Positions 3,622 through 61,516 of a stretch of DNA of 61,516 nt are shown here, one piece after another. Source of the DNA: a virus. The position numbers were made by a program, and so were the translations under genes. The notes beneath the pieces are model-generated. The model worked only from the letters and a program-made list of their open reading frames with translations. It was not told the origin of the DNA and searched no databases. Within the stretch, counting starts at the first letter, position 1. Each line of letters opens with the position of its first letter. The DNA lies in the IMG/VR virus record IMGVR_UViG_3300027908_000008, positions 1 to 61,516 of that record; one strand, given 5' to 3'.

Positions 3622-3934
3622 CGTCCTCTCCATCCGCCAGAACTGGCGATGCGGCTGCGGATGCGGTGGAACACTGATCTCAGAACCCGTCATTGACGAG
3701 CACCTGATTCCGCTGGAGCTGTCAGGCAGCAACGACCTCTCGAATCGCGCGCTCTACCTCGTCGCCTGCGCCAAGCTGAAGACCAAGAAGGACCGGCGCG
3801 ACATTGCCAAGGCGCACAGGCTCATTCGCAAAGCCAACCCAGAAACCCGGAAGGTCACGAAGCGCCCAATCAGATCGAGAGGCTTTCAGAAGGACTTACG
3901 CAAGCGCATGGACGGCACGGTCGAGCGTCGCTAG
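3557..3934 (+). CDS. Small HNH-type endonuclease
   Basis: CGCGCGGTL...IDEHLIPLELSGSNDLSNRALYLVACAKLKTKKD; start uncertain because the track ATG overlaps ninB by 65 nt. Confidence 0.6.
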   Translation: MIWNREQVNATPRKPLSLAQRNVLSIRQNWRCGCGCGGTLISEPVIDEHLIPLELSGSNDLSNRALYLVACAKLKTKKDRRDIAKAHRLIRKANPETRKVTKRPIRSRGFQKDLRKRMDGTVERR

Positions 3935-4887
3935 TTCTTCCGCCGCTCCAGCCGCTCGTCGGTCGGCTCCTGCCCCACCCGCGCGTCCGGCGGGGAGTAG
4001 ATTGCCGACAAGATCGCCCTCCCTATCGTCTCCGGAATGATTGGCGGGTTCAGGTTTCCGAGGGCGTGGATGCGGTCCACCGTGTCGGAAGTCCTTGAAG
4101 CCACTCTAGCCAGTCCGGATTCAGGCTCCCAAGTATGGCGTTCTTGCCGTGCGATTGCAGTCCCGATCGGCGCGAGGCTGTAGGCGTCGGCAGCAGTCCC
4201 CTCATAACTAGCGATGCCAAGCTCGGGCTTTTGCGGCGGTATTCGGCTGGAGAGCCTCTGTCTTTCCAGTCCCGGGCCATGGGCGTAGGGACAAGCGATT
4301 GATTTACCGCACGCCCGAGTTCGTTCCAGCTTGGCCCGTTCGTCTTGCCGTCCGGGCTGGCCCCATGCAGCGTCGGCCAGAGTTGCGACGATCCAGACGC
4401 GATCACGGATGTGGGGTGCGTCAAAGGCGGCAGCCGATAGGCAATGCCACTCCGCATCGTACCCGAGCGCGGCCAGGTCTCCGAGGACTCGGCCAAAGTC
4501 AGCGCCTTCATTGATAGTAAGGAGACCGACCGAGTTCTCCAGCAGCAGTCCTCTGGGTCGTATCTCGCCAGCGAGACGGGCGATGTGCGTCCATAGTCCA
4601 GAGCGTGGATCGTCCATGCCAAGTCCCGTGCCCGCTGGGCTGTTGCCCTGGCAGGGCCAGCCGGCAACGATCCAGTCGGGAACAAGTCCATCTGCCCGCA
4701 GTCGCTCTCCGGTGAGTTGCTCGACATCTTCGTAGATCGCGACATCGGGCCAGTGTTTCCTCAGGATGCGACGACAGAAAGCGTTGATCTCGCAGAAGGC
4801 GATTGTGGAGAATCCGCCGGTTCGCTCCAGGCCGAGCGAATAGGCGCCGACGCCTGAGAACAAGTCGAGCGTTTTAAGCCGGCTCAT
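3931..4887 (-). CDS. dcm: DNA (cytosine-5)-methyltransferase
   Basis: Motif I DLFSGVGAYSLG, IV GWPCQGNS, VI LLLENSVGLL, VIII FDAPHIRDRVWIVA, X ALGNLNPPIIPETIG. Confidence 0.85.
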   Translation of the reverse strand: MSRLKTLDLFSGVGAYSLGLERTGGFSTIAFCEINAFCRRILRKHWPDVAIYEDVEQLTGERLRADGLVPDWIVAGWPCQGNSPAGTGLGMDDPRSGLWTHIARLAGEIRPRGLLLENSVGLLTINEGADFGRVLGDLAALGYDAEWHCLSAAAFDAPHIRDRVWIVATLADAAWGQPGRQDERAKLERTRACGKSIACPYAHGPGLERQRLSSRIPPQKPELGIASYEGTAADAYSLAPIGTAIARQERHTWEPESGLARVASRTSDTVDRIHALGNLNPPIIPETIGRAILSAIYSPPDARVGQEPTDERLERRKN

Positions 4888-4906
4888 TCGACGTGCTCGC
4901 CCCTCT

Positions 4907-4927
4907 GATTTGCAAAAAATGCAAATC
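4907..4927. promoter_or_regulatory. Perfect 8-bp inverted repeat GATTTGCA-A5-TGCAAATC between the gcrA-like and dcm genes
   Basis: Read directly; lies in the AT-rich 58-nt gap upstream of the dcm start; may be an operator or a weak hairpin. Confidence 0.35.
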
Positions 4928-4945
4928 GGAACCAGATGGAGGCAC

Positions 4946-5440
4946 TCAAGATAATCTCTCCAGCCGCATATGCCTTTTGTCCGACCTCTCGCCCGCCGCC
5001 GCTCTCACATGCTCGGCGCAGTAGCTCAGCCCGATTTCCTTGCGTTGGCCGCAGAAGTGGAAGTCGGAGCGGGACGGGTCGCCCAGAGGCCAACGGCAGC
5101 AGTACGGCGTCAGGGCCAGCACGGCGTCGCTGGACGCCATGGCCGGCCTGGGTGAGGCTGGGATGGGGATTGGTACCGGCCGGGGCTGTGCGGCCCTGTC
5201 GCGCCCCTTCTGCGCCGCCACCTTAGCGACCGCTGCCTTGGCGCCCTCGTTGCTGAGCCGGTTCAGCTTGACGGCCTCGGGCGTCTTCTTCCACCCGCGC
5301 CTGGTCGCTATGCCGGTCACGACGCCGCGCCCGGTCAGGTTCAGCATCTGCGAGACCACCAAAGCCGTCAGGTTCTGCACGACGTAGAGCGCGTGGATTT
5401 TGCGCTCCAGGGCGAGGGAGATGCGGGGCTCGCCGCTCAT
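4946..5440 (-). CDS. gcrA: GcrA-like cell-cycle regulator homologue
   Basis: Start M86 of the track ORF (ATGA overlap at 5437-5440); N-terminal HTH-like LNLTGRGVVTGIATRRGW; C-terminal CRWPLGDPSRSDFHFCGQRKEIGLSYCAEH. Confidence 0.75.
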   Translation of the reverse strand: MSGEPRISLALERKIHALYVVQNLTALVVSQMLNLTGRGVVTGIATRRGWKKTPEAVKLNRLSNEGAKAAVAKVAAQKGRDRAAQPRPVPIPIPASPRPAMASSDAVLALTPYCCRWPLGDPSRSDFHFCGQRKEIGLSYCAEHVRAAAGERSDKRHMRLERLS

Positions 5441-5655
5441 GCGTTTTCCCGCCACGGATCGTGTTTCGGCTTGGCAGGCTCGCCCTTGTACGGCCACCCG
5501 CCTCGCCAAGTCCGCATGTAGTCCCGCAGGTAGGCGTTGCGGCACAGCCGGCAGCGTGGGTGATCGCCGCCGGTCGCGTTCTCGGCGACTCGCGCGTGGC
5601 CGCAGCGGAAGGTCGCCCCCTTCGGCGCGTCGGCGGGGGTCATGCCGCTCTCCAC
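5437..5655 (-). CDS. Zinc-ribbon miniprotein (CGH...CRLC...YLRDYMR)
   Basis: FRCGHARVAENATGGDHPRCRLCRNAYLRDYMR; paralogue of 1085..1264; high GC3. Confidence 0.55.
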   Translation of the reverse strand: MESGMTPADAPKGATFRCGHARVAENATGGDHPRCRLCRNAYLRDYMRTWRGGWPYKGEPAKPKHDPWRENA

Positions 5656-5675
5656 AGGATGGGCGCTTGGTCACG

Positions 5676-6212
5676 CTAGATGCGGTGAACACCACGAGCG
5701 AGCGGATGCTTCGGCGCGCCGGTGTTCGTCTTGCCCCAGCACCATAGGTCCGGGTAAGGCGATTCGCCGCTTTGGATTTCCTCGACTACGTGCTCAACGA
5801 ACATGTCATCCCACGCTATCGCGCCCCAGCAGACGAACACTTGGTGAGCCCGCTTCGCCATATGGACAACCGCCGGCAGGTTCTCGAAGTAGAGGGCGTC
5901 GCGTGCCGACCAATCGCCGCCGTCGATCCCGTTGACGATGCGTCTGCACTCGGCTGGGCTTGGCGAGCAGAACGGGTAGAGGTTGGCCGCGTCGTAGCCG
6001 CCAAAGCCAGCGCGTTCGAACCAGCCATTCCACCAGCGCGAGGTCGGATCGTCCTTGTCGGCATCAGCGGTCGAGGGGTTGCAGCCCAGCACGAGCGCGC
6101 GTGGTCCCGGTCCCCAATCGCGGGATAGTCGAACGCGGCAACCGTCACGCGAGAAGAACGCCGAGCGGCGCAGGACCGGCTCACCAAATAGGTCAAGTGC
6201 AGGGCTATTCAT
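5676..6212 (-). CDS. DUF1643 domain protein
   Basis: RVRLSRDWGPGPRALVLGCNPSTADADKDDPTSRW...GFGGYDAANLYPF matches the DUF1643 pattern. Confidence 0.7.
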   Translation of the reverse strand: MNSPALDLFGEPVLRRSAFFSRDGCRVRLSRDWGPGPRALVLGCNPSTADADKDDPTSRWWNGWFERAGFGGYDAANLYPFCSPSPAECRRIVNGIDGGDWSARDALYFENLPAVVHMAKRAHQVFVCWGAIAWDDMFVEHVVEEIQSGESPYPDLWCWGKTNTGAPKHPLARGVHRI

Positions 6213-6442
6213 AACGCCAGCTTCCGCAAATCTTCGGTCCTCTGAGCGATAAGCTCATCAAGCGCCGAGTTGAGCCTAGCCCATCCGTCCACCAACGGCT
6301 GACGCCTGCCTTTGCGATAGTTCGAGATGACCGAAGCGTGCGTGCCGGCGGCTTCCGCTAGCTCTTCGTCCGTGATGCGCGCAGCCTTGCGACGCGCGTC
6401 GAACTCAGTCATCTGCTCAGCGAATGCTTTCATAGGCGGCAT
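6209..6442 (-). CDS. XRE/Cro-like HTH transcriptional regulator
   Basis: ITDEELAEAAGTHASVISNYRKGRRQP helix-turn-helix; divergent from the early operon. Confidence 0.6.
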   Translation of the reverse strand: MPPMKAFAEQMTEFDARRKAARITDEELAEAAGTHASVISNYRKGRRQPLVDGWARLNSALDELIAQRTEDLRKLAL

Positions 6443-6485
6443 GGTGGCCTAAACGCGATCACACGTCAAGCATGACGATTTCGTA

Positions 6486-6513
6486 TTGACAGGCTTAGTG
6501 GTGGTGATAGCTT
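6486..6513 (+). promoter_or_regulatory. Candidate sigma70-type promoter for the rightward early operon
   Basis: TTGACA (6486-6491), 16-nt spacer, TG-n-TAGCTT (6505-6513), about 50 nt upstream of ATG 6562. Confidence 0.3.
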
Positions 6514-6573
6514 GTCCCCATCAACCACCGCCCCGGCTAGGGGGGAAGAGGGAGGAACGAGATGACCGATCCA

Positions 6574-6581
6574 TTCACGAG
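6574..6581. repeat. Target-site duplication TTCACGAG (left)
   Basis: The same 8-mer directly abuts the other inverted repeat at 7115..7122. Confidence 0.7.
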
Positions 6582-7114
6582 GGGACCTATATACGTCTAT
6601 GACCCACAGGCGTATGAGTGGGTCCGACAGGCCGGCGTTCAGGGCTGCCAGGGCCGTTGAAGCTGTCGGTTTGCGAAGCGTGGCGCAGACGGTGAAGGAC
6701 AAACCAAGCCGTCTTCTGAGTGATGCCCAGATCGGTCGCGAGCGTCGTGCTGGCGATGCCCTTGGGATGCGCCGTGATCATCCAGATCGCCGCGTACCAA
6801 GTGCGGAAGGGCAGCTTCGTGTCTTGGAAGATGGTCCCAACGCGGATGCTGAAGCGCTTGCGGCAGACGTAGCACTTGTGGGTGTTCGTGCCGGTGAGCG
6901 TGCCGATGCGCGCTTCGTCGGCGTTGCCGCAGAGCGGGCAGAACTTCCCATTCGCCCAGCGGATCGCCGTGAAGTGATCAATCGCAGACTGCTCGGTCGG
7001 GAAGGCCGCGAACAGCTCGGGAAGGGTCTTGAATTGCTTGATCATCGTCGGGCGTCTCCAGTGAGAACACCCTATGCCCACCCGCTTGCTGGGTCAAGCA
7101 CGTATATAGGTCCC
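6582..7114. mobile_element. IS1595-family mini-element (533 bp, internally deleted)
   Basis: Perfect 15-nt terminal inverted repeats GGGACCTATATACGT (6582-6596 and 7100-7114), extendable imperfectly to about 26 nt; flanked by an 8-bp direct repeat; encodes only the transposase N-terminal domain. Confidence 0.7.
6587..7045 (-). CDS. Truncated IS1595-family transposase (zinc-ribbon + HTH N-terminal domain only)
   Basis: MIKQFKTLPELF...GKFCPLCGN...KCYVCRKRFSIRVGTIFQDTKLPFRTWYAAIWMI...ITQKTAWFVLHRLR aligns with the N-terminus of 52496..53476; no DDE domain. Confidence 0.7.
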   Translation of the reverse strand: MIKQFKTLPELFAAFPTEQSAIDHFTAIRWANGKFCPLCGNADEARIGTLTGTNTHKCYVCRKRFSIRVGTIFQDTKLPFRTWYAAIWMITAHPKGIASTTLATDLGITQKTAWFVLHRLRHASQTDSFNGPGSPERRPVGPTHTPVGHRRI

Positions 7115-7122
7115 TTCACGAG
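7115..7122. repeat. Target-site duplication TTCACGAG (right)
   Basis: Identical to 6574..6581. Confidence 0.7.
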
Positions 7123-7435
7123 CCACTACTCCTTCGAGTACGCCGCGACGCACGCGACCAACCCGAACGCGCGCCGTATGCTGTTCCTCGAAGCTGCCCG
7201 TCACTGGCGCGGCTTGGCCCGCAACATGATGGACCTACAGCGCTCCTACGGGCGCGGTCGATTCGACGGTGTTGACGGGCGTATCGCTGCTCAAGCCCTC
7301 CACTTCGCCAAGATCGCCTTGGCGGCCATCTAGGAAAATCAACGGGGTGAGGTTGATTCCTCTTAAAGAGCCGAGACGAAAGCTCGGTCGCCCCTAACCC
7401 TCCCACCCCAGACCACAAGACGGAGAAGAGAAACA

Positions 7436-7642
7436 ATGCCTAAGATCGAAGATGACGGCGACTTGAAGGTTCGCCACTCGGCGCAGGAGCTGATCGGTGT
7501 CCGCATCGCCAAGATGGAACGCGACTCGCGCGACAACTGGCTGGTTTACGGGTTCGACGGCAGCGAGGGCCGGATCGCCATGGTCGCGATGATCAGGGCC
7601 GATGGGTTCTACGACTGCGACGGCAACTATTTCGGCGACTAG
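7436..7642 (+). CDS. Hypothetical protein (68 aa)
   Basis: Track ORF with GGAGAAGAG RBS upstream; first intact gene of the plus-strand early block. Confidence 0.5.
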   Translation: MPKIEDDGDLKVRHSAQELIGVRIAKMERDSRDNWLVYGFDGSEGRIAMVAMIRADGFYDCDGNYFGD

Positions 7643-7664
7643 CAGCACAGGAGAAAGGCCAACC

Positions 7665-7700
7665 GGCCGCAGCGACGCCCCCGACTACAACGCTGCGGCC
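7665..7700 (+). other. 10-bp perfect stem hairpin (ggccgcagcg / cgctgcggcc, 16-nt loop)
   Basis: Read directly in the intergenic gap before the pentapeptide gene; no U-tract. Confidence 0.3.
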
Positions 7701-7742
7701 CATTAGCCCTTCACCATCCCCGACCGGGGCAGAGGAAATGAG

Positions 7743-8471
7743 ATGACCAAGGCCAAGCCGCACACCGAGACGATTACGATCCAGAAGCGTTGGTCGTGGC
7801 TGACCGCGCTCAGCGTCGAGGTCGAATGCGATCCGACGCTCTCGCCACGCATCAAACTGGGGCTGGCGCTAAAGGTGGCCCACGAGGCCAAGCAAGGCCT
7901 GACGGGCGCGGACCTGAGGGACGCGGTCCTGAGGGACGCGGTCCTGACGGGCGCGGACCTGATGGACGCGGTCCTGAGGGGCGCGGACCTGACGGGCGCG
8001 GTCCTGAGGGACGCGGTCCTGACGGACGCGGTCCTGAGGGGCGCGGACCTGACGGGCGCGGACCTGACGGGCGCGGTCCTGAGGGGCGCGGACCTGAGGG
8101 GCGCGGACCTGACGGGCGCGGTCCTGAGGGGCGCGGACCTGAGGGGCGCGGACCTGACGGGCGCGGACCTGACGGGCGCGGTCCTGAGGGGCGCGGACCT
8201 GAGGGGCGAAAAAATCGAGCGCATCTTCGCCATCGCCGGCCGGCTCGACGGCTACACCTTCTACGGCATCCAACTGCGCACTGGCGGCGTCAAAATCTCC
8301 GCCGGATGCCGCTGGTACACCATCGAGCAATTCCGCGAGCACGTCGCCAAAAAATACCCAGACACCGACAAGGCGCGCGAGACGCTCGACATCATCGAGT
8401 TCATCGAGAAGCGGGCCGTTGGCCTTCCGGCGCCGGTTGTCGAAGCTGTCACCGAAACGGTTGCGTCGTGA
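7743..8471 (+). CDS. Pentapeptide-repeat protein with a C-terminal non-repeat domain
   Basis: 20 consecutive units [20 protein letters not shown] etc. (A[DV]Lxx); GAGGAAATGAG RBS. Confidence 0.85.
7905..8204 (+). repeat. Tandem 15-nt coding repeats (20 units) inside the pentapeptide gene
   Basis: ggcgcggacctgacg / ggcgcggtcctgagg / gacgcggtcctgagg variants in an uninterrupted array. Confidence 0.9.
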
Positions 8472-8650
8472 GCGCGTCCAGCTTCCACACCAACGCTGAA
8501 TCCTGGTGCGCCAGCGGCATAGCCGCCCTCCTTGTCCGCTGCTTCTCCGACACCCAGCGCCGTCACGACGAAGCCCTTCGGATCGCCGAGGACTGCCTGC
8601 GGTGGTCGGAGCGGGCGCAGCGGTTTAGCAAGATCGGAGGGGCGACGTGA
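8468..8650 (+). CDS. Hypothetical protein (60 aa)
   Basis: GTG 8468 overlapping the upstream TGA (GTGA); in frame with the tail of track ORF 7790..8650. Confidence 0.4.
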
Positions 8651-9009
8651 GCAACCTGCGCAGCCCATGGTCCTTGAGTGGCGCCTTCATTGTGAATGAC
8701 GATGGGGACGCACTGGCGACTATCAAGTTGCATGGCTCCCAAGACCATCCGCGCAATCCGAATTGGAAGATTGACGCCCTTACCGACGAAGATCGCCAAG
8801 TCGGGTTGTTGATCGCTGCTGCACCCGATCTTTACGAGGCGCTTAAGCTCTTCGCCTCGCCCAGTATGAGCGAGAGTCGCCCATCGCGCGGAGAATCGTC
8901 CATCGGCTGGCAACGCGACGACGGTCTACTAGCTAGCCAGCGCGTGAAGATCGCTAAGGCCGCCCTCGCCAAGGCCACCGGCCCGACCAGCGGAGGGGGA
9001 GCGGAATGA
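8647..9009 (+). CDS. Hypothetical protein
   Basis: Track ORF; GTGA coupling to the upstream gene and ATGA to the downstream gene. Confidence 0.45.
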   Translation: MSNLRSPWSLSGAFIVNDDGDALATIKLHGSQDHPRNPNWKIDALTDEDRQVGLLIAAAPDLYEALKLFASPSMSESRPSRGESSIGWQRDDGLLASQRVKIAKAALAKATGPTSGGGAE

Positions 9010-48516: not shown

Positions 48517-50133
48517 TTAGTAGCCTCCCCTCGGATTGCGCACGCGCCTTTGGCGGGGCGGCGTGTTCTGCGCTAGCATATTCGCCGCGAACGGAACAGC
48601 GAAAGTCAGCGCCGCTGCGTCGCCTAGGTCAGGCGAGGCACCCAACCGCTTCTTGATCTTCTCCTTGTCCTCCAGCACCAGCTCGTTGTTGGTGTTGTGC
48701 CGCGTCGCCTGCGGACCCCACACCGGGGCGCCGATATCGGCATGAAGCGCATCGCTATCCGGCACTTGCACCCCGCCAGGCGATTCGAACCAGTCGCGCA
48801 TCAGGTCCCACATCTCAGCCCGGCGGTTGAGGTACATCTCCTCGCCAGTCGGGCCACGACCTATCGGCGACGAGCCGAAGTTGACCGCGTTCAGCCTGGC
48901 GCCGTAGCCCATGTCCATCAGGTTGTCGTACACGCCAGCCCCGTTCGAGCCGACATCGATGTTGACCGCGTCTGGGCTCAGACGGTCGATTACCGTCGCA
49001 AGTCGCTGGGCGAGGTAAACCGTATCGCCCTCAGGCTCCCACGTCTCGCAGATGCGCTGGCCAAGCCGGCGCCCGCAGCGGTCGATGATGCCCACCCGAT
49101 CTTGGTCGCGGGCCGGATCGATACCGAGAATGATCGGCCCGCGCCCAATGATTTCCTCTTCCGGCTTGCGCGCCTTCATGATGCTGAGCGCCGGGATGAA
49201 GCTGTTGCCCGACGTCTGGAACGCGAGATCGAACGTCGCGGGGTATTCGGCGTGGAAGTCGGGGCAGATTTTCTCCGGATCGAGCGACTTGCCTTGGGCG
49301 ATCTCGCGATTGGTCAGGTAGGCCCAGTAGACCTGCTCCCACGTCAGCTCGTGCAATTCGCCGTATTCGCGGAACTCCGGCGGACACCTGTCGGCGAAGG
49401 ACTTTGGGCATTTCTCCTGATAATCGTCGCCCCAGAACCACGGAATGAAGATCGCTTCGTACTCAGACTTCTCGTGAATCGCCGCCATGGCGTAGCTGTG
49501 GAAGACATTTCCGATGCCGTCGGCGGTCGATTCGAGGATGCCCTCGGTTCCGTCCACCTTGGCGAGCGCCGTGGTCAGCAGGGACTTCACGTGGCTTTCG
49601 GCGTTAGGCCAGTAGCTGACCTCTGAGCCGTGGAAAAGCTGAATGGTGTCCGACCGTCCTACCTCTTTGCTCCCCGCCGTTGCGACATGGTAGCCGCAGT
49701 CGTTGGCGGCAAATACCAGCTCTTTCGCGTTGGCCGCCTTGGTCTTGGGGCGCATGTGCGCCGGCATCAAGTCCTGGAACCGCTGCGCCATGCCGAACAA
49801 GTTCGCCGTCGCGGGGTCTTCGTGCGTGAGGATGAATGCCCTGAGGGCCCTTGAGGATCGCCAAAGCTTCCAATAGAATCGCGCCTGGATATAGGTGCTG
49901 ATCCCGAGCTGACGTCCTTTGACGATCAGGGCACGAACCCACCTCTTCGTCTCTAGCTGACGCTCAAGTCGTGCGTGCAAATGCCGCTGCGCTCGGTTGA
50001 GCCGAAACGGAACGACCTCGCCGCTCTTGGTTCTGATCTTGAGGCACGTCCGCGCGAAGAACTCGAAGTCGTCAACGCAGCGAAGGGCGAGTTGGCGGGC
50101 CTGGTCGAGGATTTCGGGCGTGATGGTGCTCAA
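48517..50133 (-). CDS. terL: Terminase large subunit
   Basis: 538 aa; Walker-A-like KGRQLGISTY, ATPase then nuclease halves (IILGIDPARDQDRVGI...); position upstream of the portal. Confidence 0.85.
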   Translation of the reverse strand: MSTITPEILDQARQLALRCVDDFEFFARTCLKIRTKSGEVVPFRLNRAQRHLHARLERQLETKRWVRALIVKGRQLGISTYIQARFYWKLWRSSRALRAFILTHEDPATANLFGMAQRFQDLMPAHMRPKTKAANAKELVFAANDCGYHVATAGSKEVGRSDTIQLFHGSEVSYWPNAESHVKSLLTTALAKVDGTEGILESTADGIGNVFHSYAMAAIHEKSEYEAIFIPWFWGDDYQEKCPKSFADRCPPEFREYGELHELTWEQVYWAYLTNREIAQGKSLDPEKICPDFHAEYPATFDLAFQTSGNSFIPALSIMKARKPEEEIIGRGPIILGIDPARDQDRVGIIDRCGRRLGQRICETWEPEGDTVYLAQRLATVIDRLSPDAVNIDVGSNGAGVYDNLMDMGYGARLNAVNFGSSPIGRGPTGEEMYLNRRAEMWDLMRDWFESPGGVQVPDSDALHADIGAPVWGPQATRHNTNNELVLEDKEKIKKRLGASPDLGDAAALTFAVPFAANMLAQNTPPRQRRVRNPRGGY

Positions 50134-52430: not shown

Positions 52431-52456
52431 GGCGATTATATACTTTGCAAACGCAT
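52431..52456. repeat. Left terminal inverted repeat (also carries TTGCAA-N16-TATAAG promoter-like boxes)
   Basis: Shares GG....TATATAC with the mini-IS terminus; 39 nt upstream of the transposase ATG. Confidence 0.55.
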
Positions 52457-52495
52457 TAGACTGCGCTATAAGAATCCATCAACGGATTCAAAGCG

Positions 52496-53476
52496 ATGTC
52501 CATTCTCAGCCAGCCCCATTTCCACGACGAAACCGCCGCTTTCGAGTACGTCGAAGCGGCTCTTTGGCCCCAAGGTCCGGTCTGCCCGCACTGTGGTTGC
52601 ATGGGTCGTGTCTCGGCGCTCGCGCCCGTCCGTGGACACGTCAGCAAGAAGAGCCCCGAAGGCGCGATCCGCCTCGGTGTGAAGTTCTGCGGCGACTGCC
52701 GTAAGCAATTCACCGTCCGCGTCGGCACGATCTTCGAAGAGTCGAAACTCCCCATGACGAAGTGGCTGCAAGCCATCTTCCTGATGGTTTCGAGCAAGAA
52801 GGGCGTGTCGAGCCACCAGCTCATGCGGACCCTGGAAACCACCTACAAGACCGCGTGGTTTCTCTCGCACCGCATCCGGGAAGCCATGCGCGAGGGCGAC
52901 CTAGCGCCGTTCGGCTCGGGCGGCGGCGATGTCGAAGTTGACGAAACCTACATCGGCCGCGAACCCGACGCCGGCACGGATCGCAGCGGTGGCGTGGACA
53001 AGATGAAGGTGCTGCGCCTGATCGACCGCACGACCGGCCGTAGCCGTTCAATGGTCCTGGACAACGTGAACACCCGGACGATTGCCGAAGCGGTGTCCGC
53101 CAACCTCGCTCGCGAGGCCCGTCTGATCACGGACCAAGCCGGCTACTACAAGCGCGTCGGCGCCACCTTCGCGGCGCACGTCACGGTCAACCACAGCATC
53201 AAAGAGTACGTCTCCAAGCTGGACCCGTCCGTGCATACGAACACGATTGAAGGCTCGTTTTCGATCTTCAAGCGCGGCATGCGCGGCGTCTATCAGCATT
53301 GCGCCAAGAAGCACCTGCACCGCTATCTGGCCGAATTCGATTTCCGGTACTCGCATCGCGTCGCGCTTGGCATCGGCGACGAAGAGCGCGCCGGCATCGC
53401 GCTGGACGGCTTCCGGGGTCGCCGCCTGACCTACCGATCAACTGACGGCTGGAACGCGGCCCAAGGCGACCGGTAA
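52496..53476 (+). CDS. IS1595-family transposase (full length; zinc ribbon + HTH + ISXO2-like DDE domain)
   Basis: VCPHCGC...FCGDCRKQFTVRVGTIFEESKLPMTKWLQAIFLM...YKTAWFLSHRIREAM...DVEVDETYIG...ITDQAGYY...TNTIEGSFSIFKRGMRGVYQHCAKKHLHRYLAEFDFRYSHR. Confidence 0.85.
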   Translation: MSILSQPHFHDETAAFEYVEAALWPQGPVCPHCGCMGRVSALAPVRGHVSKKSPEGAIRLGVKFCGDCRKQFTVRVGTIFEESKLPMTKWLQAIFLMVSSKKGVSSHQLMRTLETTYKTAWFLSHRIREAMREGDLAPFGSGGGDVEVDETYIGREPDAGTDRSGGVDKMKVLRLIDRTTGRSRSMVLDNVNTRTIAEAVSANLAREARLITDQAGYYKRVGATFAAHVTVNHSIKEYVSKLDPSVHTNTIEGSFSIFKRGMRGVYQHCAKKHLHRYLAEFDFRYSHRVALGIGDEERAGIALDGFRGRRLTYRSTDGWNAAQGDR

Positions 53477-53537
53477 GAGGCACCGCTCGCGCTGGATCAC
53501 GAAGCGTCACACCTAGGGGGCTCCATACAGACATGAT

Positions 53538-54239
53538 ATGTTCCGCGCGATGACTGCGCCGGCCGCCTCGCGTGACCCGCTGTTTGCAGGGTTCTACAGC
53601 CTGAAAGAGGCTGCAGTGCTGCTTGGGCTTCCGAACAATCGTCGCCTGAAAGGATGGCTTGACGGCTGGAACAACAGTGGCGCTGGTCCAATCATCAACC
53701 GCGACTTTCCCGAAGGCGCTGTGAGCTTCCTCGATCTGATGGAGCTTCGCTTTGTCGATCATTTCACGCGCCAGAACGTGCCGCTGCAAACAATTCGGCG
53801 GGCCGCTGAACGCGCGCGACATGAATGGGGGGTGCAACATCCCTTGGCGCTCTCAAATGCGAAATACCTCACTGACCGCCGCAGAATATTTGGCCAGGTA
53901 GCCGAAGAAGACGGCGACAAATACACATGGGATATGGCGACCAACCAGCTTGAGATGTGGGTCGCAATCGAGAACATCATCGTCAAAGGTGTTGAGTTCT
54001 CGCCGGCAACAGAGCTGGCTCGCCTCTGGCGCCCGCGCCCTGATTGCCCAAACGTTATTCTTGACCCGAGGATTGCCTTCGGGCGCCCGTCCATCGGTTC
54101 GCGCGGCGTCCCCACTGTCGCTTTGTTCAAGCAGTGGAAGGCCGAAGATGGCGATAGCGGCCGCGTAGCTTCGTGGTTTCACGTGAAAACGGAAGAAGTC
54201 ACCGAGGCGGTCGAGTTTGAGTTGCTGATGGCCGCTTGA
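53538..54239 (+). CDS. DUF433-domain protein with an N-terminal extension (antitoxin-like)
   Basis: C-terminus ILDPRIAFGRPSIGSRGVPTVALFKQWKAEDGDSGRVASWFHVKTEEVTEAVEF. Confidence 0.7.
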   Translation: MFRAMTAPAASRDPLFAGFYSLKEAAVLLGLPNNRRLKGWLDGWNNSGAGPIINRDFPEGAVSFLDLMELRFVDHFTRQNVPLQTIRRAAERARHEWGVQHPLALSNAKYLTDRRRIFGQVAEEDGDKYTWDMATNQLEMWVAIENIIVKGVEFSPATELARLWRPRPDCPNVILDPRIAFGRPSIGSRGVPTVALFKQWKAEDGDSGRVASWFHVKTEEVTEAVEFELLMAA

Positions 54240-54529
54240 AAATTCGAGCCGACGAACATGTCTCTCCCGAGATCGTTCGGGCCGTGGTTTCCATGGCCAT
54301 CAGTAAGGGATTCGAGTTTTCACACGTATACGAGGCCAACCAAGGAGGCCACAAAGACGAGCATTGGATAACGGCGTTCGCCAACGACGGCGGCGAGGCC
54401 ATCATCACAGCAGACAGCGATTTTCATAAGCGACCGGCACAAGTTGTAGCCGTGTTTAACACCGGGATGAAGGTTATTCACCTTCCGCCCAAGTGGGGAA
54501 ACGCTAAGTGTCACCTCCAGGCCGCTTAG
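54236..54529 (+). CDS. DUF5615/PIN-like (Mut7-C-like) protein (toxin-like partner of DUF433)
   Basis: MKIRADEHVSPEIV...KDEHWITAFANDGGEAIITADSDF; 4-nt overlap with the upstream gene. Confidence 0.65.
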   Translation: MKIRADEHVSPEIVRAVVSMAISKGFEFSHVYEANQGGHKDEHWITAFANDGGEAIITADSDFHKRPAQVVAVFNTGMKVIHLPPKWGNAKCHLQAA

Positions 54530-54545
54530 AGTATGATGAACATGC

Positions 54546-54577
54546 AAACAGCCCGGCCGAATTCGGCCGGGCTGTTT
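54546..54577 (+). terminator. Rho-independent terminator
   Basis: aaacagcccggccg-aatt-cggccgggctgttt, perfect 14-bp arms including an A/T tail. Confidence 0.65.
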
Positions 54578-54634
54578 CAGCGACGACCAAAACTTTCACG
54601 GGTCGCGGTCGCGCTGTCGCTAAGGACTTGATTT

Positions 54635-55201
54635 ATGGCAGATTCCCTGGAGTCGGTCAACGTTGCCGCACGCCTATATCGCCGGTGGATCGAGGACGCG
54701 CTCAAAACGCCGCCGACGATTTCAAGGGCCGGCAACATTGCGCGCTGGACTGGCGTTGCCGAGGGGCTAGAGGCCGCGGCGGCTGAGTTGGAGCGCCTTC
54801 GGGTTTGGTCGAAGCCGGTACCGGCTTCTTATGGCGACCTTTCGGATCTGCCAGCCGAGCTACTCGCCCAGCTCAGCGGCGCGAAGACTGACCCGCTCGA
54901 AGAGCAAATACACGCCATCGTCAAGGCGGCTGGTGATGAAATCGAGCTTGATATGGTCTTGATTGAGCTTTTCCGCCGTCATGGCGAAATACACCAGCGC
55001 AGGTTCATTACGAATAAAGCTTATCGCATGGCCCAGAAGGGTGTCATTCACATCGTTCCTGGCCGAAAAGGCGTCTATTCAATCCACCCTCAGGAAAAAC
55101 GGGTGGTCGAGGACGGTGACTTCGGCGGATATTCGTCAGCACCAAAACCGACAGCCAAGGAGACCTTCTCGGCCGATCTGGATGACGAGATTCCCTTTTG
55201 A
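54635..55201 (+). CDS. Winged-helix-like protein ending in an SSB-type acidic tail (DLDDEIPF)
   Basis: AAGGA RBS; ...IELFRRHGEIHQRRFITNKAYRMAQKGVIHIVPGRKGVYSI...; last residues SADLDDEIPF. Confidence 0.5.
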   Translation: MADSLESVNVAARLYRRWIEDALKTPPTISRAGNIARWTGVAEGLEAAAAELERLRVWSKPVPASYGDLSDLPAELLAQLSGAKTDPLEEQIHAIVKAAGDEIELDMVLIELFRRHGEIHQRRFITNKAYRMAQKGVIHIVPGRKGVYSIHPQEKRVVEDGDFGGYSSAPKPTAKETFSADLDDEIPF

Positions 55202-55206
55202 CGGAA

Positions 55207-55234
55207 AACGCCCCGCCGTTGCGGGCGGGGCGTT
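55207..55234 (+). terminator. Rho-independent terminator
   Basis: aacgccccgcc-gttgcg-ggcggggcgtt, 11-bp GC-rich stem with a TT tail. Confidence 0.6.
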
Positions 55235-55242
55235 CCGGTGTT

Positions 55243-55316
55243 GGGCCTGGCAAGAGCGGAGTGACGGCTACCCACCTACAGCTCCGAGGGTGCAAGTCCC
55301 TCCAGGTCCACCTCCA
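55243..55316 (+). other. tRNA/tmRNA 3'-end-like fragment (acceptor + T arm, no anticodon arm)
   Basis: gggcctg...gaggg-tgcaagt-ccctc-caggtcc-a-cc; the 3' part resembles the ...GGGTTCAACTCCCGCCAGCTCCACCA type of ssrA ends; same odd T loop as tRNA 20262..20333. Confidence 0.35.
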
Positions 55317-55367
55317 TTTAGTACCGAGTGAGCATGGCGAAACAGTGAACCGGGTGCAAGGCACCCT

Positions 55368-55661
55368 ATGGATTGGCGCACAAGGATGGCTCAGACGATT
55401 GGCCAGTTCCGCAAAGTCGGTGATCTGATCGCCGCCTTCACGCGGCTTGGCTGCGAGGTGCGTTACACGCGCGTAGTCGTCTATCTTGACCAATCCACAG
55501 GTCAACCCAGCGACCCGGTCCGCTTCCTCCACAACCCGAAAACCGGGGGGTTCGTACCCATTGGGGATTTGGAGGACGATGAGCGCGTTCCGCCCAGCGA
55601 AGTTGAAAACTGGGAACGTCGTCTTGGTGTGGGCTCCGTGGACAACGGCGCGGTCCAATAG
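55368..55661 (+). CDS. HicA-like protein (weak similarity)
   Basis: FRKVGDLIAAFTRLGCEVR ... VPPSEVENWERRLGV mimic the HicA ends; start may be 55386. Confidence 0.35.
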   Translation: MDWRTRMAQTIGQFRKVGDLIAAFTRLGCEVRYTRVVVYLDQSTGQPSDPVRFLHNPKTGGFVPIGDLEDDERVPPSEVENWERRLGVGSVDNGAVQ

Positions 55662-55742
55662 GGCATTAACTCCCAGTTAGGCGGCGCATGGGCGTTCTCC
55701 ACGCATTGACGCCACGTGTTTCGACGCTAGATAGAACCCCAC

Positions 55743-56081
55743 ATGAAAGCTGCGCAGACTATGCCTCGCATCAAAGTCAGCGTGGTGGCTTTTCAAGAGG
55801 GCGACCTGTGGGTCGCCCAATGCGTCGAATACGACATAGCCGCCCACGCCCCCGCTCTTCCGAAGCTACCGGAGGCATTCGAGAAGGCGATTGCCGAGAA
55901 CCTGTGCATCAACGCCGAGTTGGGGCGCCAGGGGCTTGACGGGATTCCCGCCGCGCCGCCGCGCTTTCGCAAACTCTTCAAATCTGGCCTGGAACTTAAG
56001 ACGCCGCGCCGCGCGCCTGCCTCTGACGTCGGCAAGGTTGAGATTGGACGGCTAAGAGTTGCCGAAGCACACGCAGCCTAG
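55743..56081 (+). CDS. HicB-like antitoxin-fold protein
   Basis: IKVSVVAFQEGDLWVAQCVEYDIAAHAPALPKLPEAFEKAIAENL...GLDGIPAAPP. Confidence 0.6.
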   Translation: MKAAQTMPRIKVSVVAFQEGDLWVAQCVEYDIAAHAPALPKLPEAFEKAIAENLCINAELGRQGLDGIPAAPPRFRKLFKSGLELKTPRRAPASDVGKVEIGRLRVAEAHAA

Positions 56082-56223
56082 CGCCGCCACTGGCGCCACG
56101 CAGATAGACAAGTTCCGCGACCTGGCGCGCGAGCTTGATTGCGACACCGACGAAGCCGCCTTCAAGGCGAAGCTGGTGAAGATCGCCAAGGCGCCACGTC
56201 AGCCGGCCGAAAAGAAGACGTGA
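56059..56223 (+). CDS. Small protein (54 aa) with a DKFRDLARELDCDTDEAAFKAKL motif
   Basis: Hand-translated from TTG 56059; below the track cutoff; the motif recurs in small alphaproteobacterial ORFs as I recall them. Confidence 0.4.
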   Translation: MPKHTQPSAATGATQIDKFRDLARELDCDTDEAAFKAKLVKIAKAPRQPAEKKT

Positions 56224-56447
56224 CCCCCGATCTAGGCGTCATTCTGATCTGCGCGACAATTGCCATTGCGGCAGGGCTTGTCCTGCGCGCACTCGGCGAG
56301 GTCGCGAATCAACTAGCCCAACTCCGCACGGAAATGCTGCGCTATCACACCCGGATGGGAGAGGGTCACCTTCTGCGCGAGATCGCTCATACGTCGGAGA
56401 AAATGGCGGAATACCTACACAGAATATCGGATCGAGACTTGGGGTAA
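56220..56447 (+). CDS. Small TM + helical protein (75 aa)
   Basis: GTG 56220 (GTGA overlap) within track ORF 56139..56447; LGVILICATIAIAAGLVL. Confidence 0.4.
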   Translation: MTPDLGVILICATIAIAAGLVLRALGEVANQLAQLRTEMLRYHTRMGEGHLLREIAHTSEKMAEYLHRISDRDLG

Positions 56448-56477
56448 GAAAAATACTTCAAGGGCTCGGCGGAGGCC

Positions 56478-57038
56478 TTAGAACAGCGCCCCGTCGGTCA
56501 AATGCGCCGGTTTTCCGTCAGCAATCATGGCATCAACGTTTACCTTCGTGCCGGGGGAGATAACCGATAATTGCGCCTGCCACTTCGCGGGAAAATCCAC
56601 GAAGAACCACGCAATCTCACCAATACTGAGTTGCACAGTCAGGATTCCGTTCCCGCCCATGCTCACGGTCGCCATCGTTGCCGAGAACCTGATCCGCTTG
56701 CCGATGTAAGGACGCAGAAGCAAATCCACCTGAAGGTCCGTGGGGGGAGTGCCGCTGTAGAGGGCCGTGAACTTGTCGGAGACCGACGGCGGCGCGTAGT
56801 CGGCTCCATTGATCGGAGGGGCGCTGGCCGCGACTTGCGCCGGAGGCGTCGGCGGCGGCGACCACTTGCGCACCACCCATAAGCCACCCGCGAGCAGAAC
56901 CAGCACAAGGGGCAGGTAGTTGACCCAGCCAAAACCGCGCGGCACCAGCGCTCGCAGCTTCGGCGCATCCTTGATGGCTTGGTTTCCAGCCATAATTAGG
57001 CTGGCGAGAGCCAAGCAGGCGTATTCGATAGCCCCCAT
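56478..57038 (-). CDS. Membrane-anchored protein of unknown function
   Basis: Two N-terminal hydrophobic spans, a Pro-rich linker and a beta-rich C-domain; start 23 nt from the right inverted repeat. Confidence 0.5.
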   Translation of the reverse strand: MGAIEYACLALASLIMAGNQAIKDAPKLRALVPRGFGWVNYLPLVLVLLAGGLWVVRKWSPPPTPPAQVAASAPPINGADYAPPSVSDKFTALYSGTPPTDLQVDLLLRPYIGKRIRFSATMATVSMGGNGILTVQLSIGEIAWFFVDFPAKWQAQLSVISPGTKVNVDAMIADGKPAHLTDGALF

Positions 57039-57061
57039 GCCCTCAGCATAGCTTCAGCGCC

Positions 57062-57087
57062 ATGCGTTTGCAAAAGGCATAATCGCC
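57062..57087. repeat. Right inverted repeat partner of 52431..52456
   Basis: Reverse complement reads GGCGATTATGCCTTTTGCAAACGCAT. Confidence 0.55.
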
Positions 57088-57136
57088 AAACCGAGGGCTC
57101 GGTTACAGTGAAGATCAACCGAGGGGCGTTTCCGGC

Positions 57137-58171
57137 ATGGTGGCTAATGGCGGTCGCGCGCGCCGTTGGGGCGCATACGCTGCATTTGGAATAACGGTTG
57201 CCCTCTTAGGGCAGGCGACCGCTGCTCAGCCACCACACCCAGGCCATGGAGCTGGCGACGCAGGCTCCGTAGCCAATCAAGCTCCAAAGACCACAACGCA
57301 ACCAAGCGCTCCGGTCCCCATCGAACGCGACGTAGAGCGCGTTGCCAGCGCGCTTGAATCCAAGAACACCTACGACCAGTCCACCAAGGGCCAGCAAGAC
57401 GCACACGAGGCCGCTAAGGCCGCGACAGACGCCGCCGCATCGGCCCGAGACGCCGCCAATTGGGCGGGGGGCATGCTCATCGCCGCTTGGGCTGAGACGA
57501 CCGTAACGCTCGTTGGCGTTATCTTGGTCGGCGCCACGCTCGTTTACGCGAAGAAATCCGCCGAGGCCGCCAGCGACGCCACTGTCGAGATGGGAAAGAC
57601 CGCTAAAGCAACCAAAGATGCCGCTTGGGCGTCCGAGATAGCGGCACGAAACAGCGTCACCGCCACAACCCTCATTAGAGAGAATACCAGGGCGGAATTG
57701 CGCGCCTATATTGCTCTCGAAGGGATAGATTTTGAATGGACAGACACTCACGCGGCCGTTGTTCAGGTGAGTTGGAAAAACAATGGCGCCACGCCTACCG
57801 TGCGGGCCTTGACCCAAACAAACGTGAGAATGGAAGACTCGGACATGCCAGAGGGGTTTGAATATCCAGACGTCACAAGGGACAAACCCGTAATAGTCTC
57901 TCTGGGTCCCGGACAACACCGTAATTTCCACACAAACGAGAAAATTCACGTAGTAGATATCGAGAACGTCCAATCCGGGTATAAACACATACATGTTTGG
58001 GGATGGATTGAGTACTGTGACGTCTTCGACGGAAAAATCAGACACAGATCGGAGTTTTGCTCGGTACTCAAGACTCTCGGAAAAAAGGCAGAGAAGGTTT
58101 CGTACGTCTGGAACTCCTATGGGCCTTTCAATGGGACAGACGGGGACTGCTATCGAAAGCCAACCACATAG
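57137..58171 (+). CDS. Membrane protein of unknown function (344 aa)
   Basis: Signal-like N-terminus, central TM GMLIAAWAETTVTLVGVILVGATLVY, lower-GC C-terminal domain. Confidence 0.5.
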   Translation: MVANGGRARRWGAYAAFGITVALLGQATAAQPPHPGHGAGDAGSVANQAPKTTTQPSAPVPIERDVERVASALESKNTYDQSTKGQQDAHEAAKAATDAAASARDAANWAGGMLIAAWAETTVTLVGVILVGATLVYAKKSAEAASDATVEMGKTAKATKDAAWASEIAARNSVTATTLIRENTRAELRAYIALEGIDFEWTDTHAAVVQVSWKNNGATPTVRALTQTNVRMEDSDMPEGFEYPDVTRDKPVIVSLGPGQHRNFHTNEKIHVVDIENVQSGYKHIHVWGWIEYCDVFDGKIRHRSEFCSVLKTLGKKAEKVSYVWNSYGPFNGTDGDCYRKPTT

Positions 58172-58209
58172 CGCGGCTATCGCCGCAATGACGCGCACCG
58201 CGCGCCTCC

Positions 58210-58602
58210 CTAACCGGACCTATCCCCTCTCATGAGATGGCCCCGGCAGGGCGAAACGGCTTCCACCGTCTGCGCCATAATACCGGTCTTGTCCTTCTTT
58301 GCCGCCTCGCGGCGCTTCCTCATGTATTCTCGCTGGTAGGCGTTGCGGTCGAACTTGGAGCCTGCTGGCCGTTCGCCGCCGGCAATGCCTGTGTCGCCGG
58401 CGTCAGCCAGAGCTGGTTCAGACGCGCCGCATAAATCTCGTTCGCTCCCCACTGGGTTTGCGGGATGCTGTATGGCCACGGCGAGGCGAGGTTTTGGTTC
58501 GGCATCGGTTGCCCGGAGTGGGGGCAAAGATTTGCAGACATGGACGTCGCCGCTCCATCGAGGCTCGCCGCAGAATTTGCAGGCCGGGGCTTTCATCGAC
58601 AA
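58210..58602 (-). CDS. Zinc-ribbon protein with a FDRNAYQREYMRKRR tail
   Basis: CKFCGEPRWSGDVHVC; the C-terminal motif is related to the YxRxYMR tails of the CGH/CRxC miniproteins. Confidence 0.5.
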   Translation of the reverse strand: MSMKAPACKFCGEPRWSGDVHVCKSLPPLRATDAEPKPRLAVAIQHPANPVGSERDLCGASEPALADAGDTGIAGGERPAGSKFDRNAYQREYMRKRREAAKKDKTGIMAQTVEAVSPCRGHLMRGDRSG

Positions 58603-58630: not shown

Positions 58631-59143
58631 CTAACTCTTTTCCGGTTCGCCCTTCGCCTGCGCCGCGACGAGCCAGGCGTGCAAGTCGCCGGTCACGTTG
58701 TGGTCTACGCCAACTCGATCCCCATACTTCTTCGGGTTCTTGCGGCCAGAGGTCCACTTGAAGGCGTCTATCGCTACACGCCCAGCCGCTGGATCAAGCT
58801 CGCCACGAGCAATCTGACGTCCCATGTCGGCTATGTCATCATGGTCCGCATCACCTGAAAGCATCATCGCGCGCGCGTATTGGTCAACGAAACCAACTAG
58901 TTCTGGCCTTTCGTCGTGGTTAGCCGCCCACTTCAGCACGGCCGCCTTGCTTGGCATCGTGTCATCGCGGCAGATAGACCGAAGGCTCTCCCCCTCGATC
59001 AGTCGCTCGCAGATGGCGTTGGCGATAGCGTGGCTGAACTCGACCGGCTGCTTGTGTGCGGGGGCCGGCGCGTAGCGCTCAGCGGCCAGCCGCTGCATCT
59101 CGGCTTTCGCGTCTTCGGAGACTAATGGGGGAACGATGCTCAC
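58631..59143 (-). CDS. Terminase small subunit-like protein
   Basis: FSHAIANAICERLIEGESLRSICRDDTMPSKAAVLKWAANHDE...FVDQYARA...AFKWTSGRKNPKKYGDRV matches a widespread TerS-annotated family. Confidence 0.6.
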   Translation of the reverse strand: MSIVPPLVSEDAKAEMQRLAAERYAPAPAHKQPVEFSHAIANAICERLIEGESLRSICRDDTMPSKAAVLKWAANHDERPELVGFVDQYARAMMLSGDADHDDIADMGRQIARGELDPAAGRVAIDAFKWTSGRKNPKKYGDRVGVDHNVTGDLHAWLVAAQAKGEPEKS

Positions 59144-61099: not shown

Positions 61100-61510
61100 T
61101 CATTGATCTTCTTCCGGATTTCCAACTACCCTGAGCTTGGGTCGCAGCGCGAACCCGCGAGCCTTGGCGCTAGCGCGCCCTGCGGCGCCGCGGCTTTCAA
61201 TGAAGGCTTGATAGGTCGCAATTTCCGCTTCGCAGCGGTCGTTGGTCAGGTAGGTGACGCCCTTGATAATGTGGGCGCGCAGCTTTCCCCTAGCGACTAA
61301 AGTTCGTCGGATCGGTCGCCATTCTTCAGCGGTAATCCCAAGTCGGCTTTGAATCTCGACCTCAGGGACTTGGGCGCCTCTCGCGTAGATGCACAGAATG
61401 GCAGTTGCGTAGGCACCGCGTTCGGAAGGCGATAAGCCGATCATACCGTCGTTGAAGGCAACCGGATCGCACTTGAACCAAGGGAGACCGCTCACGCCCG
61501 CACGCGCCAA
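61100..61510 (-). CDS. DUF1376 domain protein (replication-module protein)
   Basis: LPWFKCDPVAFNDGMIGLSPSERGAYATAILCIYARG; TTG start lies inside the terminal repeat (also present at 91-93). Confidence 0.7.
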   Translation of the reverse strand: MARAGVSGLPWFKCDPVAFNDGMIGLSPSERGAYATAILCIYARGAQVPEVEIQSRLGITAEEWRPIRRTLVARGKLRAHIIKGVTYLTNDRCEAEIATYQAFIESRGAAGRASAKARGFALRPKLRVVGNPEEDQ

Positions 61511-61516
61511 TCTCTG
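61418..61516. repeat. Terminal redundancy, copy 2 (identical to 1..99)
   Basis: Same 99-nt string as the window start; implies a circular or terminally redundant 61,417-bp unit. Confidence 0.95.

Follow-up and report, generated by a model that had tools for sequence, protein, structure and literature searches.

Within the phage genome recorded in IMG/VR as IMGVR_UViG_3300027908_000008, analysed here over all of its 61,516 nucleotides (the window), the region from 52431 to 57087 very probably corresponds to an IS1595-family transporter insertion sequence (tIS) of 4,657 bp, nested in the remnant of a second one (tIS-B). Insertion sequences (ISs) that carry passenger genes, or tIS, have been described before, and only the IS1595 and IS66 families are said to include them (bioRxiv 10.1101/2021.05.26.445724; PMC3129680 citing Siguier, Gagnevin & Chandler 2009); the window element is a further member of this kind. 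A phage is an unusual place for it, as ISs are counter-selected and poorly tolerated in phage genomes (PMC3429520). As in other tIS, the passengers lie within terminal repeats and, judging by the cargo and the target duplications of its relatives, would move with the transposase gene. In contrast to a composite transposon, which would need two IS copies, a single transposase gene and a single pair of ends were found in 52431-57087. In the proposed mechanism, the transposase would bind the ends, of about 24 bp, and mobilise the segment they enclose as a single unit, leaving an 8-bp duplication of the target.

Transposase, terminal repeats and target duplications

The transposase gene begins 65 nt after the tip of the left repeat, as stated in the original prediction made for this DNA, and encodes both the zinc ribbon and the IS1595-type DDE domain by which the family is recognised. 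Its product matched Pfam Zn_ribbon_IS1595 (1.6e-8) and DDE_Tnp_IS1595 (1.4e-31) (PF12760 and PF12762), as well as NCBIfam transpos_IS1595 (NF033547, 1.2e-56) over positions 2-215 of the 215 of that profile. The family-invariant residues C30/C33, C65/C68, D149, D213, E252 and K259 are all kept, and the protein looks intact.

Short imperfect inverted repeats, as expected for the IS1595 family, are present at both ends of the element (IRL-A and IRR-A; Table 1). Comparison of the 26-nt repeat at 52431 with its predicted inverted partner at 57062-57087 reproduced 22 of 26 matches, including the perfect 13-mer, which occurs exactly twice in the window against 0.06 occurrences expected from shuffled sequences. 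The complete 26-mer of IRL-A has a single occurrence even when up to three mismatches are allowed. A repeat search between 51.5 and 58.5 kb returned the IRL-A/IRR-A pair as the longest inverted repeat (27 nt with the flanking T/A, 85% complementary) and, in agreement with the prediction, no inverted partner of IRL-A directly 3' of the transposase gene. The 8-bp target duplication that usually accompanies IS1595 elements was, as already noted in the prediction, missing from the window copy, the flanks of which (ccaggact on the left and aaaccgag on the right) match at only one of eight positions. Base composition did not separate the element from the phage.

The evidence that these repeats are true ends comes from the relatives of the element. 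We fetched 99 loci through transposase homologs of 48-68% identity, drawn from IMG/VR contigs and from Alphaproteobacteria, among them Caulobacterales and Sphingomonadales. Nearly all of these loci (about 90) have the sequence GGCGATTAT(A/G)TACTTT(G/A)CAAAC, a terminus that can also be written GGCGATTAT(A/G)TACTTTGCAAAC, some 65 nt 5' of the transposase start codon, and the homology between loci begins exactly at its GG tip. At 55 loci, an inverted copy of this terminus was located 1.9-4.6 kb downstream, beyond a set of variable passenger genes, with 24-25 nt common to both ends and a consensus end of about 24 nt, GGCGATTAT(A/G)TAYTTT(A/G)CAAACCCA. Positions 8-13 of IRR-A read ATGCCT, which is the ATG(C/T)CT variant typical of the right ends of relatives, and two of these right ends (L002 and L020) have nearly the same sequence as IRR-A. 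Right termini close to the transposase gene, named in the original prediction as a finding that would speak against it, were looked for and found in none of the 55 relatives.

Immediately outside the pair of ends, a perfect 8-bp direct repeat (8/8) was present in 48 of the 55 relatives; among the other seven, one showed a 9-bp repeat, one lay at a contig edge and five had no duplication. A minimal relative of only 1,481 bp (L206), also flanked by a perfect duplication, carries, besides the transposase gene, the small gene S described below. DDE transposition characteristically leaves perfect, locus-specific 8-bp repeats just outside the ends, so the end pairs are transposition ends, and the genes between them travel with the transposase gene as cargo. 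In this way, the passenger-carrying IS of 4,657 bp that had been predicted was supported by 55 relatives with the same ends, 48 of them with duplications. Homologs found on plasmids are labelled by PGAP simply as "IS1595 family transposase". One member of the same lineage, with transposase, cargo, S and right end, occupies positions 1833-5481 of a TARA marine contig (L204) that is itself phage-like, lying between integrase/HNH genes and a lysozyme gene; therefore, the phage location of the window element is not unique.

The string GGCGATTAT was also found at 36722 of the window and considered as a solo end, a candidate that was rejected as it lies inside an HNH-type coding region and shows no further similarity to the ends.

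The second element and the rival readings

The DNA to the right of IRR-A was found to derive from another element. A metagenome locus (L196) contains at positions 4210-7802 a complete IS1595-type tIS of 3,593 bp, delimited by perfect 27-nt inverted repeats, CGGTCTTATGGCGCAAACGCCACAAGC, and by the duplication GTAACGGG. Its transposase shares only 31% identity with that of the window, and it also encodes a 75-aa DUF6471 gene product (1.4e-22) and, as cargo, a homolog of the 344-aa protein listed in Table 1. DNA similarity between this locus and the window starts exactly at 57088, in frame with DUF6471, and stops exactly at 58285, where the window shows the corresponding terminal repeat (IRR-B). 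The right flank of the 52431-57087 element is thus not phage DNA, being homologous to the interior and the end of the L196 tIS, and IRR-A interrupts the DUF6471 reading frame. No left repeat of tIS-B was detected in the window at up to eight mismatches. The window copy would lack a target duplication because it was inserted in a tIS-B remnant whose left part is gone: the first element would have inserted into tIS-B, interrupting its DUF6471 gene, and the left half of tIS-B would then have been lost, most likely through deletion or recombination next to the first element's left end.

The contiguity of both elements, whose termini share GGnnATTATG...CA(A/G)AC, and the absence of a duplication around the first one alone would also suit a hybrid unit from IRL-A to IRR-B (52431-58285, 5,855 bp) that entered the phage as a whole, with one transposase acting on two related ends. 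This is unlikely, as the hybrid unit shows no duplication either (CCAGGACT on the left vs. GTCTTGTC on the right), the two transposases share the low identity given above, and IRR-A cuts the DUF6471 frame cleanly, as a simple insertion would. A different possibility is that the real IS is a transposase unit of about 1.1 kb with a degraded right end near 53.5 kb, in which case the repeat at 57062 would be foreign to it, for instance a solo end. In its favour, simple members of the IS1595 family measure around 1 kb, and the window copy lacks a duplication. Against this, no repeat-like sequence follows the transposase gene here or in the 55 relatives, the shortest relative still has S, which in the window starts at 56059, far beyond 53.5 kb, a metagenome relative shows the same cargo order behind its transposase gene, and the variant found in IRR-A is the type usual for right ends. 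We consider this second reading very unlikely.

The original prediction itself had offered an alternative in which the two 26-mers are copies of a shared promoter or operator before two genes; the enclosed genes would then be ordinary phage morons. Each copy indeed lies just upstream of a gene in the same relative orientation, with boxes of the TTGCAA-N16/17-TATAAG/TATGCT type, and the window copy has no target duplication. Promoter function is compatible with the ends of a transposon, but it cannot account for duplications; these flank the pair in 48 of 55 relatives, as perfect 8-bp repeats whose sequence is specific to each locus and unrelated to that of the others. Moreover, the loci cease to resemble each other precisely at the GG tip, and none of eight scanned cargo proteins matches a phage protein family. 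That the 26-mers are nothing more than promoters is thus extremely improbable. What stands of this alternative is the presence of inward promoter-like boxes in each end, and because the ends carry these boxes too, it is compatible with the transposon reading rather than a rival to it.

Several points weigh against a tIS nested in the tIS-B remnant. The window copy has no duplication, is single-copy in the window and its ends differ at 4 of 26 positions, which leaves the mobility of this particular copy putative. Its best transposase relative is 68% identical, and no second exact copy was found outside the same sample. Other histories besides the proposed deletion could account for the missing duplication, and the activity of the end promoters and the toxicity of the cargo are predictions. 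Finally, no close relative of the phage that would offer an empty site for comparison was found: a blastn search with the two phage flanks had no hit among 50,697 phage records, searches of IMG/VR with TerS, a 244-aa protein and the helicase returned only distant phages with no shared synteny, and exact-protein look-ups led only to assemblies of the same soil sample.

Gene S, cargo and promoter-like boxes

The features of the element and its surroundings are collected in Table 1.

Table 1. Features of the 52431-57087 element, the tIS-B remnant and the mini-IS, in window coordinates.
Feature	Position	Strand	Sequence or evidence
Left terminal inverted repeat IRL-A	52431..52456	+	GGCGATTATATACTTTGCAAACGCAT
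Left inward promoter-like element	52445..52472	+	TTGCAA 52445-52450, 16-nt spacer, TATAAG 52467-52472
IS1595-family transposase, 326 aa, N-terminal zinc ribbon and DDE domain	52496..53476	+	Pfam, NCBIfam
233-aa HTH/DUF433-like protein, putative antitoxin	53538..54239	+	Weak HTH_28 match
97-aa PIN_10/DUF5615 protein, putative toxin	54236..54529	+	Pfam
Palindrome with perfect 17-nt arms, bidirectional terminator-like hairpin between cargo modules	54546..54577	.	
188-aa protein ending in DLDDEIPF	54635..55201	+	Homologs in the same slot of relatives
97-aa protein, first gene of two-gene module	55368..55661	+	Homologs
112-aa protein (p112), second gene of two-gene module	55743..56081	+	13 homologs
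Small gene S, 54 aa	56059..56223	+	Motif Q-DKF[KR]-.ARELECD.DE..F...L.K
75-aa membrane-type protein, GTG start overlapping the S stop codon	56220..56447	+	Open reading frame list; gene call in L115
186-aa protein with N-terminal membrane segment, inward from the right end	56478..57038	-	Open reading frame list
Right inward promoter-like element	57045..57073	-	TTGCAA 57073-57068, 17-nt spacer, TATGCT 57050-57045
Right terminal inverted repeat IRR-A	57062..57087	-	Reverse complement GGCGATTATGCCTTTTGCAAACGCAT
Right-hand remnant of second IS1595-type tIS (tIS-B)	57088..58285	+	L196 homology
tIS-B, 3' part of DUF6471 gene	57089-57196		
tIS-B, 344-aa gene	57137-58171		47% homolog in L196
tIS-B terminal repeat IRR-B	58259-58285		Reverse complement CGGTATTATGGCGCAGACGGTGGAAGC
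Mini-IS, 534 bp	6582-7115		Inverted repeats GGGACCTATATACGT, 8-bp duplication TTCACGAG

An all-against-all comparison of the open reading frames (ORFs) within 56 elements revealed two conserved genes, those of the transposase (56/56) and of S (52/56), both on the same strand. S is specific to this family, and its length ranges from 45 to 55 aa across the relatives (L002-L099, L203-L208). Among 8,000 candidates scored, 6,733 database homologs were found at E <= 0.001, and of the 120 homologs listed none has a Pfam domain or a name beyond "hypothetical protein". Three loci were picked by similarity to S alone, and in all three an IS1595 transposase gene on the strand of S precedes it by 0.3-1.8 kb. 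The AlphaFold model of S shows a helical hairpin with disordered tails. The gene had been overlooked by the gene callers in the window's own assemblies and is also missing from the original prediction, and we found no published description of it. As S persists irrespective of the cargo and the minimal element has it too, it probably takes part in the life of the element, for instance by regulating transposition or the end promoters, and is not a mere passenger.

In contrast to these two constant genes, the cargo varies between relatives. When 101 cargo ORFs of relatives were surveyed with Pfam, DUF3800 was by far the commonest passenger (20), followed by adenine methyltransferases (5), SocA_Panacea (4), PIN (4), NYN (2) and NA-iREase1 (2), with PemK, DUF433, PIN_10 and Mrr_cat found once each and a few others besides. 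In the window element, none of the eight scanned cargo proteins matches PHROGs or PADLOC. The two genes after the transposase gene are small, adjacent and co-oriented, the TTG start of the second overlapping the stop codon of the first (TTGA, 54236-54239), as in DUF433/PIN_10 pairs. The product of the second matched Pfam PIN_10 (3.2e-17) and DUF5615 (2.5e-9), and that of the first had HTH_28 (0.001) as its only Pfam match. The latter is 31% identical to a cargo protein of a relative (L047) that matches both DUF433 and HTH_66 and whose gene has a PIN_10 gene directly behind it. These data support the predicted DUF433/DUF5615 pair, here taken as a putative toxin-antitoxin-type pair at 53538-54529.

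The 188-aa protein had been predicted as a winged helix-turn-helix protein with an SSB-like tail. Homologs occupy the same slot in L016 (57% identity; 8186-8698), L099 (1487-1990) and L059, and the family combines a winged-helix-like core and a variable linker with a conserved C-terminal DLD(D/E)EIPF. This tail, kept as DLD[DE]EIPF in the homologs of L016 and L099, in accordance with the prediction, resembles the C-terminal tip of SSB, by which SSB recruits its partner proteins. No family match for the protein was obtained in Pfam, NCBIfam, PADLOC, PHROGs or a further search.

Homologs of the 97-aa protein encoded at 55368 (53% identity) adjoin p112 homologs in three chromosomal loci without IS (L198-L200; L198 6001-6599), where both genes are convergent, and in another locus (L202), the p112 homolog follows a ParE toxin pair. 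This gene neighbourhood shows the two genes to be a conserved module, as judged from sequence comparison. The HicA/HicB-like identity predicted for this set, which would entail a dsRBD-like HicA and a HicB with a partial RNase H fold, was sought, and neither protein matched Pfam, NCBIfam, PADLOC, PHROGs or PDB sequences; an AF2 model of p112 (14 sequences, pLDDT 48) gave no Foldseek match at E <= 0.001. A metagenome contig presents genes in the same order, with the transposase, proteins of 179 and 84 aa, a p112 homolog (70%) and a 227-aa gene on the minus strand.

The membrane proteins foreseen in the cargo correspond to the 75-aa and the 186-aa membrane-type products. For the 75-aa protein, no family match was found in NCBIfam, PADLOC or PHROGs. 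The 186-aa protein, the ATG of which lies 50 nt from the tip of the right repeat, is distantly related to a protein in the same position of L020 (phmmer 3.4e-5). The tRNA/tmRNA-like fragment predicted near 55.25-55.33 kb was rejected, as ARAGORN and Rfam (E <= 1) were both empty.

Both promoter-like boxes predicted at each end are present with the spacers proposed. On the left, the -35 box corresponds to positions 15-20 of IRL-A, that is, inside the repeat, and homologs keep the same layout upstream of the transposase gene, TTGCAA/TTGACA ... GCTATAAG/GGCATAAG. On the right, the ATG of the 186-aa gene (57038) follows TATGCT by 6 nt, and right ends of relatives show TTGCAA/TTTACAAAC-N17-GATATGA and then an ATG. 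Thirteen relatives have an inward ORF with its start 46-51 nt from the tip of the right end, usually encoding an N-terminal membrane segment, and some of these right-end proteins are detectably related to that of the window. A scan with the consensus promoter flagged neither end-proximal box, because its rule for the -10 box is strict. From this layout we infer that both ends may double as inward promoters. The left one, with its -35 box in the repeat, would drive the transposase gene, and the right one, in the same arrangement, would drive the membrane-protein gene, the mRNA of which is probably leaderless or nearly so because the ATG stands only 6 nt past TATGCT.

Insertion sites, known systems and phage setting

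The analysis of insertion sites showed that the elements are found 100-350 nt upstream of the RcGTA-like g1/terminase cluster of gene transfer agents (GTAs) in 21 of the 99 loci first fetched and in two of the three loci chosen by S. These GTA-linked loci (L031, L041, L043, L046, L050, L051, L053-L058, L068, L069, L073, L074, L076, L077, L087, L098, L099, L203 and L206) belong mostly to Sphingomonadales. At least 17 genomes share one insertion point, TTGACATCGTGACGCT-N5-GG(T/C) followed by the duplicated 8-mer, which places it 17 nt after a TTGACA box; in three further genomes, the element is flipped at this point, and in two more, it lies a few bases away. The duplicated 8-mer is identical on both sides within each genome but varies from one genome to the next, a pattern that favours recurrent insertion into a preferred target over one ancestral event and argues for the GTA-promoter point as a target hot spot. 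No paper linking IS1595 to gene transfer agents was found in the literature.

In addition, the motif GTTC-N7-GTTC, which we take to be the alphaproteobacterial LexA box, was found beside the element in 5 of 55 cases, against 7 of 6,126 background windows (0.1%). The loci concerned (L003, L020, L024, L030 and L080), some of them from Caulobacterales, have the motif 10-25 nt away, and the L024 element has dut on one side and a comM-like gene on the other. The motif is also present in the flanks of L004, L017, L019, L029, L034, L038 and L039.

It is conceivable, though on balance rather doubtful, that these elements form an undescribed two-gene subgroup of IS1595 tIS. Its core would consist of the transposase and S, an acidic helical hairpin, its ends would act as inward promoters, and its cargo would be mostly of toxin-antitoxin or defence type (DUF3800, Panacea, PIN, methyltransferases, NYN, nucleases). 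It would target the AT-rich -10 regions of particular promoters, such as that of the GTA cluster (Sphingomonadales, in either orientation), often beside LexA-type boxes (Caulobacterales). If so, transposase expression and perhaps transfer of the element would come under GTA, SOS or phage-packaging control, and the family would carry small immunity or addiction modules back and forth among chromosomes, GTAs and phages. Both S and the fixed insertion in the GTA promoter offer testable leads on how small cargo transposons are regulated and spread.

The window element resembles tIS of the ISNwi1 type in having one zinc-ribbon/DDE transposase near one end, terminal repeats of about 25 bp, an 8-bp duplication (here in the relatives) and passengers between the transposase gene and the far end. 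Its tip, GGnnATTAT, is presumably the end motif of ISNwi1, and its size falls within the range of about 1.75-4.75 kb that we assume for ISNwi1 with passengers. It differs from them in its phage location, its nesting in the remnant of another tIS, its S gene and its inward promoter-like boxes. Tn7-like transposons, which Benler et al. reportedly found in 2021 to be loaded with defence and toxin-antitoxin cargo, are comparable in their variable toxin-antitoxin, methyltransferase and nuclease cargo, conserved core and partly site-specific insertion. However, they depend on TnsABCD/E instead of one unrelated DDE protein, and the family described here is far smaller (1.5-4.7 kb).

Among IS1595-family elements, tISCpe8 of Clostridium perfringens and MTnSag1 of Streptococcus agalactiae carry lincomycin resistance and have 25-bp repeats and duplications (PMC5704250). 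The window element shares with them an IS1595-type DDE transposase, 25-bp repeats, a duplication (here again in the relatives) and cargo moved as one unit. In contrast to their antibiotic-resistance gene, mobilisation functions and location in plasmids or chromosomes of Firmicutes, it has toxin-antitoxin-like and membrane cargo in a phage of alphaproteobacterial type, and the sequences are unrelated beyond the family domains. As in phage morons, a block of non-phage genes with its own promoter-like and hairpin terminator-like elements runs against the late operon, between essential packaging genes; unlike classical morons, which show none, this block shows its vehicle, the transposase with its terminal repeats. 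The route by which phages gain morons is rarely visible, and the window element provides a concrete case of transposon-mediated acquisition.

Regarding the phage itself, PHROGs assignments placed TerS at 58631-59143 and TerL at 48517-50133, both on the minus strand, as are the portal and helicase genes. The interval between TerS and TerL holds the tIS blocks (52431-58285), whose transcription runs mostly against these two genes, in agreement with the predicted position and direction. Genes for ERF, YqaJ, NinB, a GcrA-like protein and a methylase are typical of temperate alphaproteobacterial phages. The mini-IS that had been predicted at 6582 as an independent element was corroborated by its inverted repeats and perfect 8-bp duplication (Table 1). 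It interrupts an ORF starting at 6563 and encodes only the zinc-ribbon N-terminal part of an IS1595-type transposase (164-aa ORF, minus strand). Altogether, this phage of about 61 kb contains three IS1595-derived elements, one of which still shows the whole vehicle, with transposase, ends and cargo, by which toxin-antitoxin-like and membrane-protein genes came into the TerS-TerL interval.

The window represents a circular assembly of about 61.4 kb, since its ends (1-99 and 61418-61516) overlap exactly over 99 nt and another assembly from the same soil sample is permuted relative to it. Finally, two Logan contigs of this genome end and begin at the 54546-54577 palindrome with a 28-nt overlap, and as the contigs meet in this way, the assembly break there looks technical and not biological.

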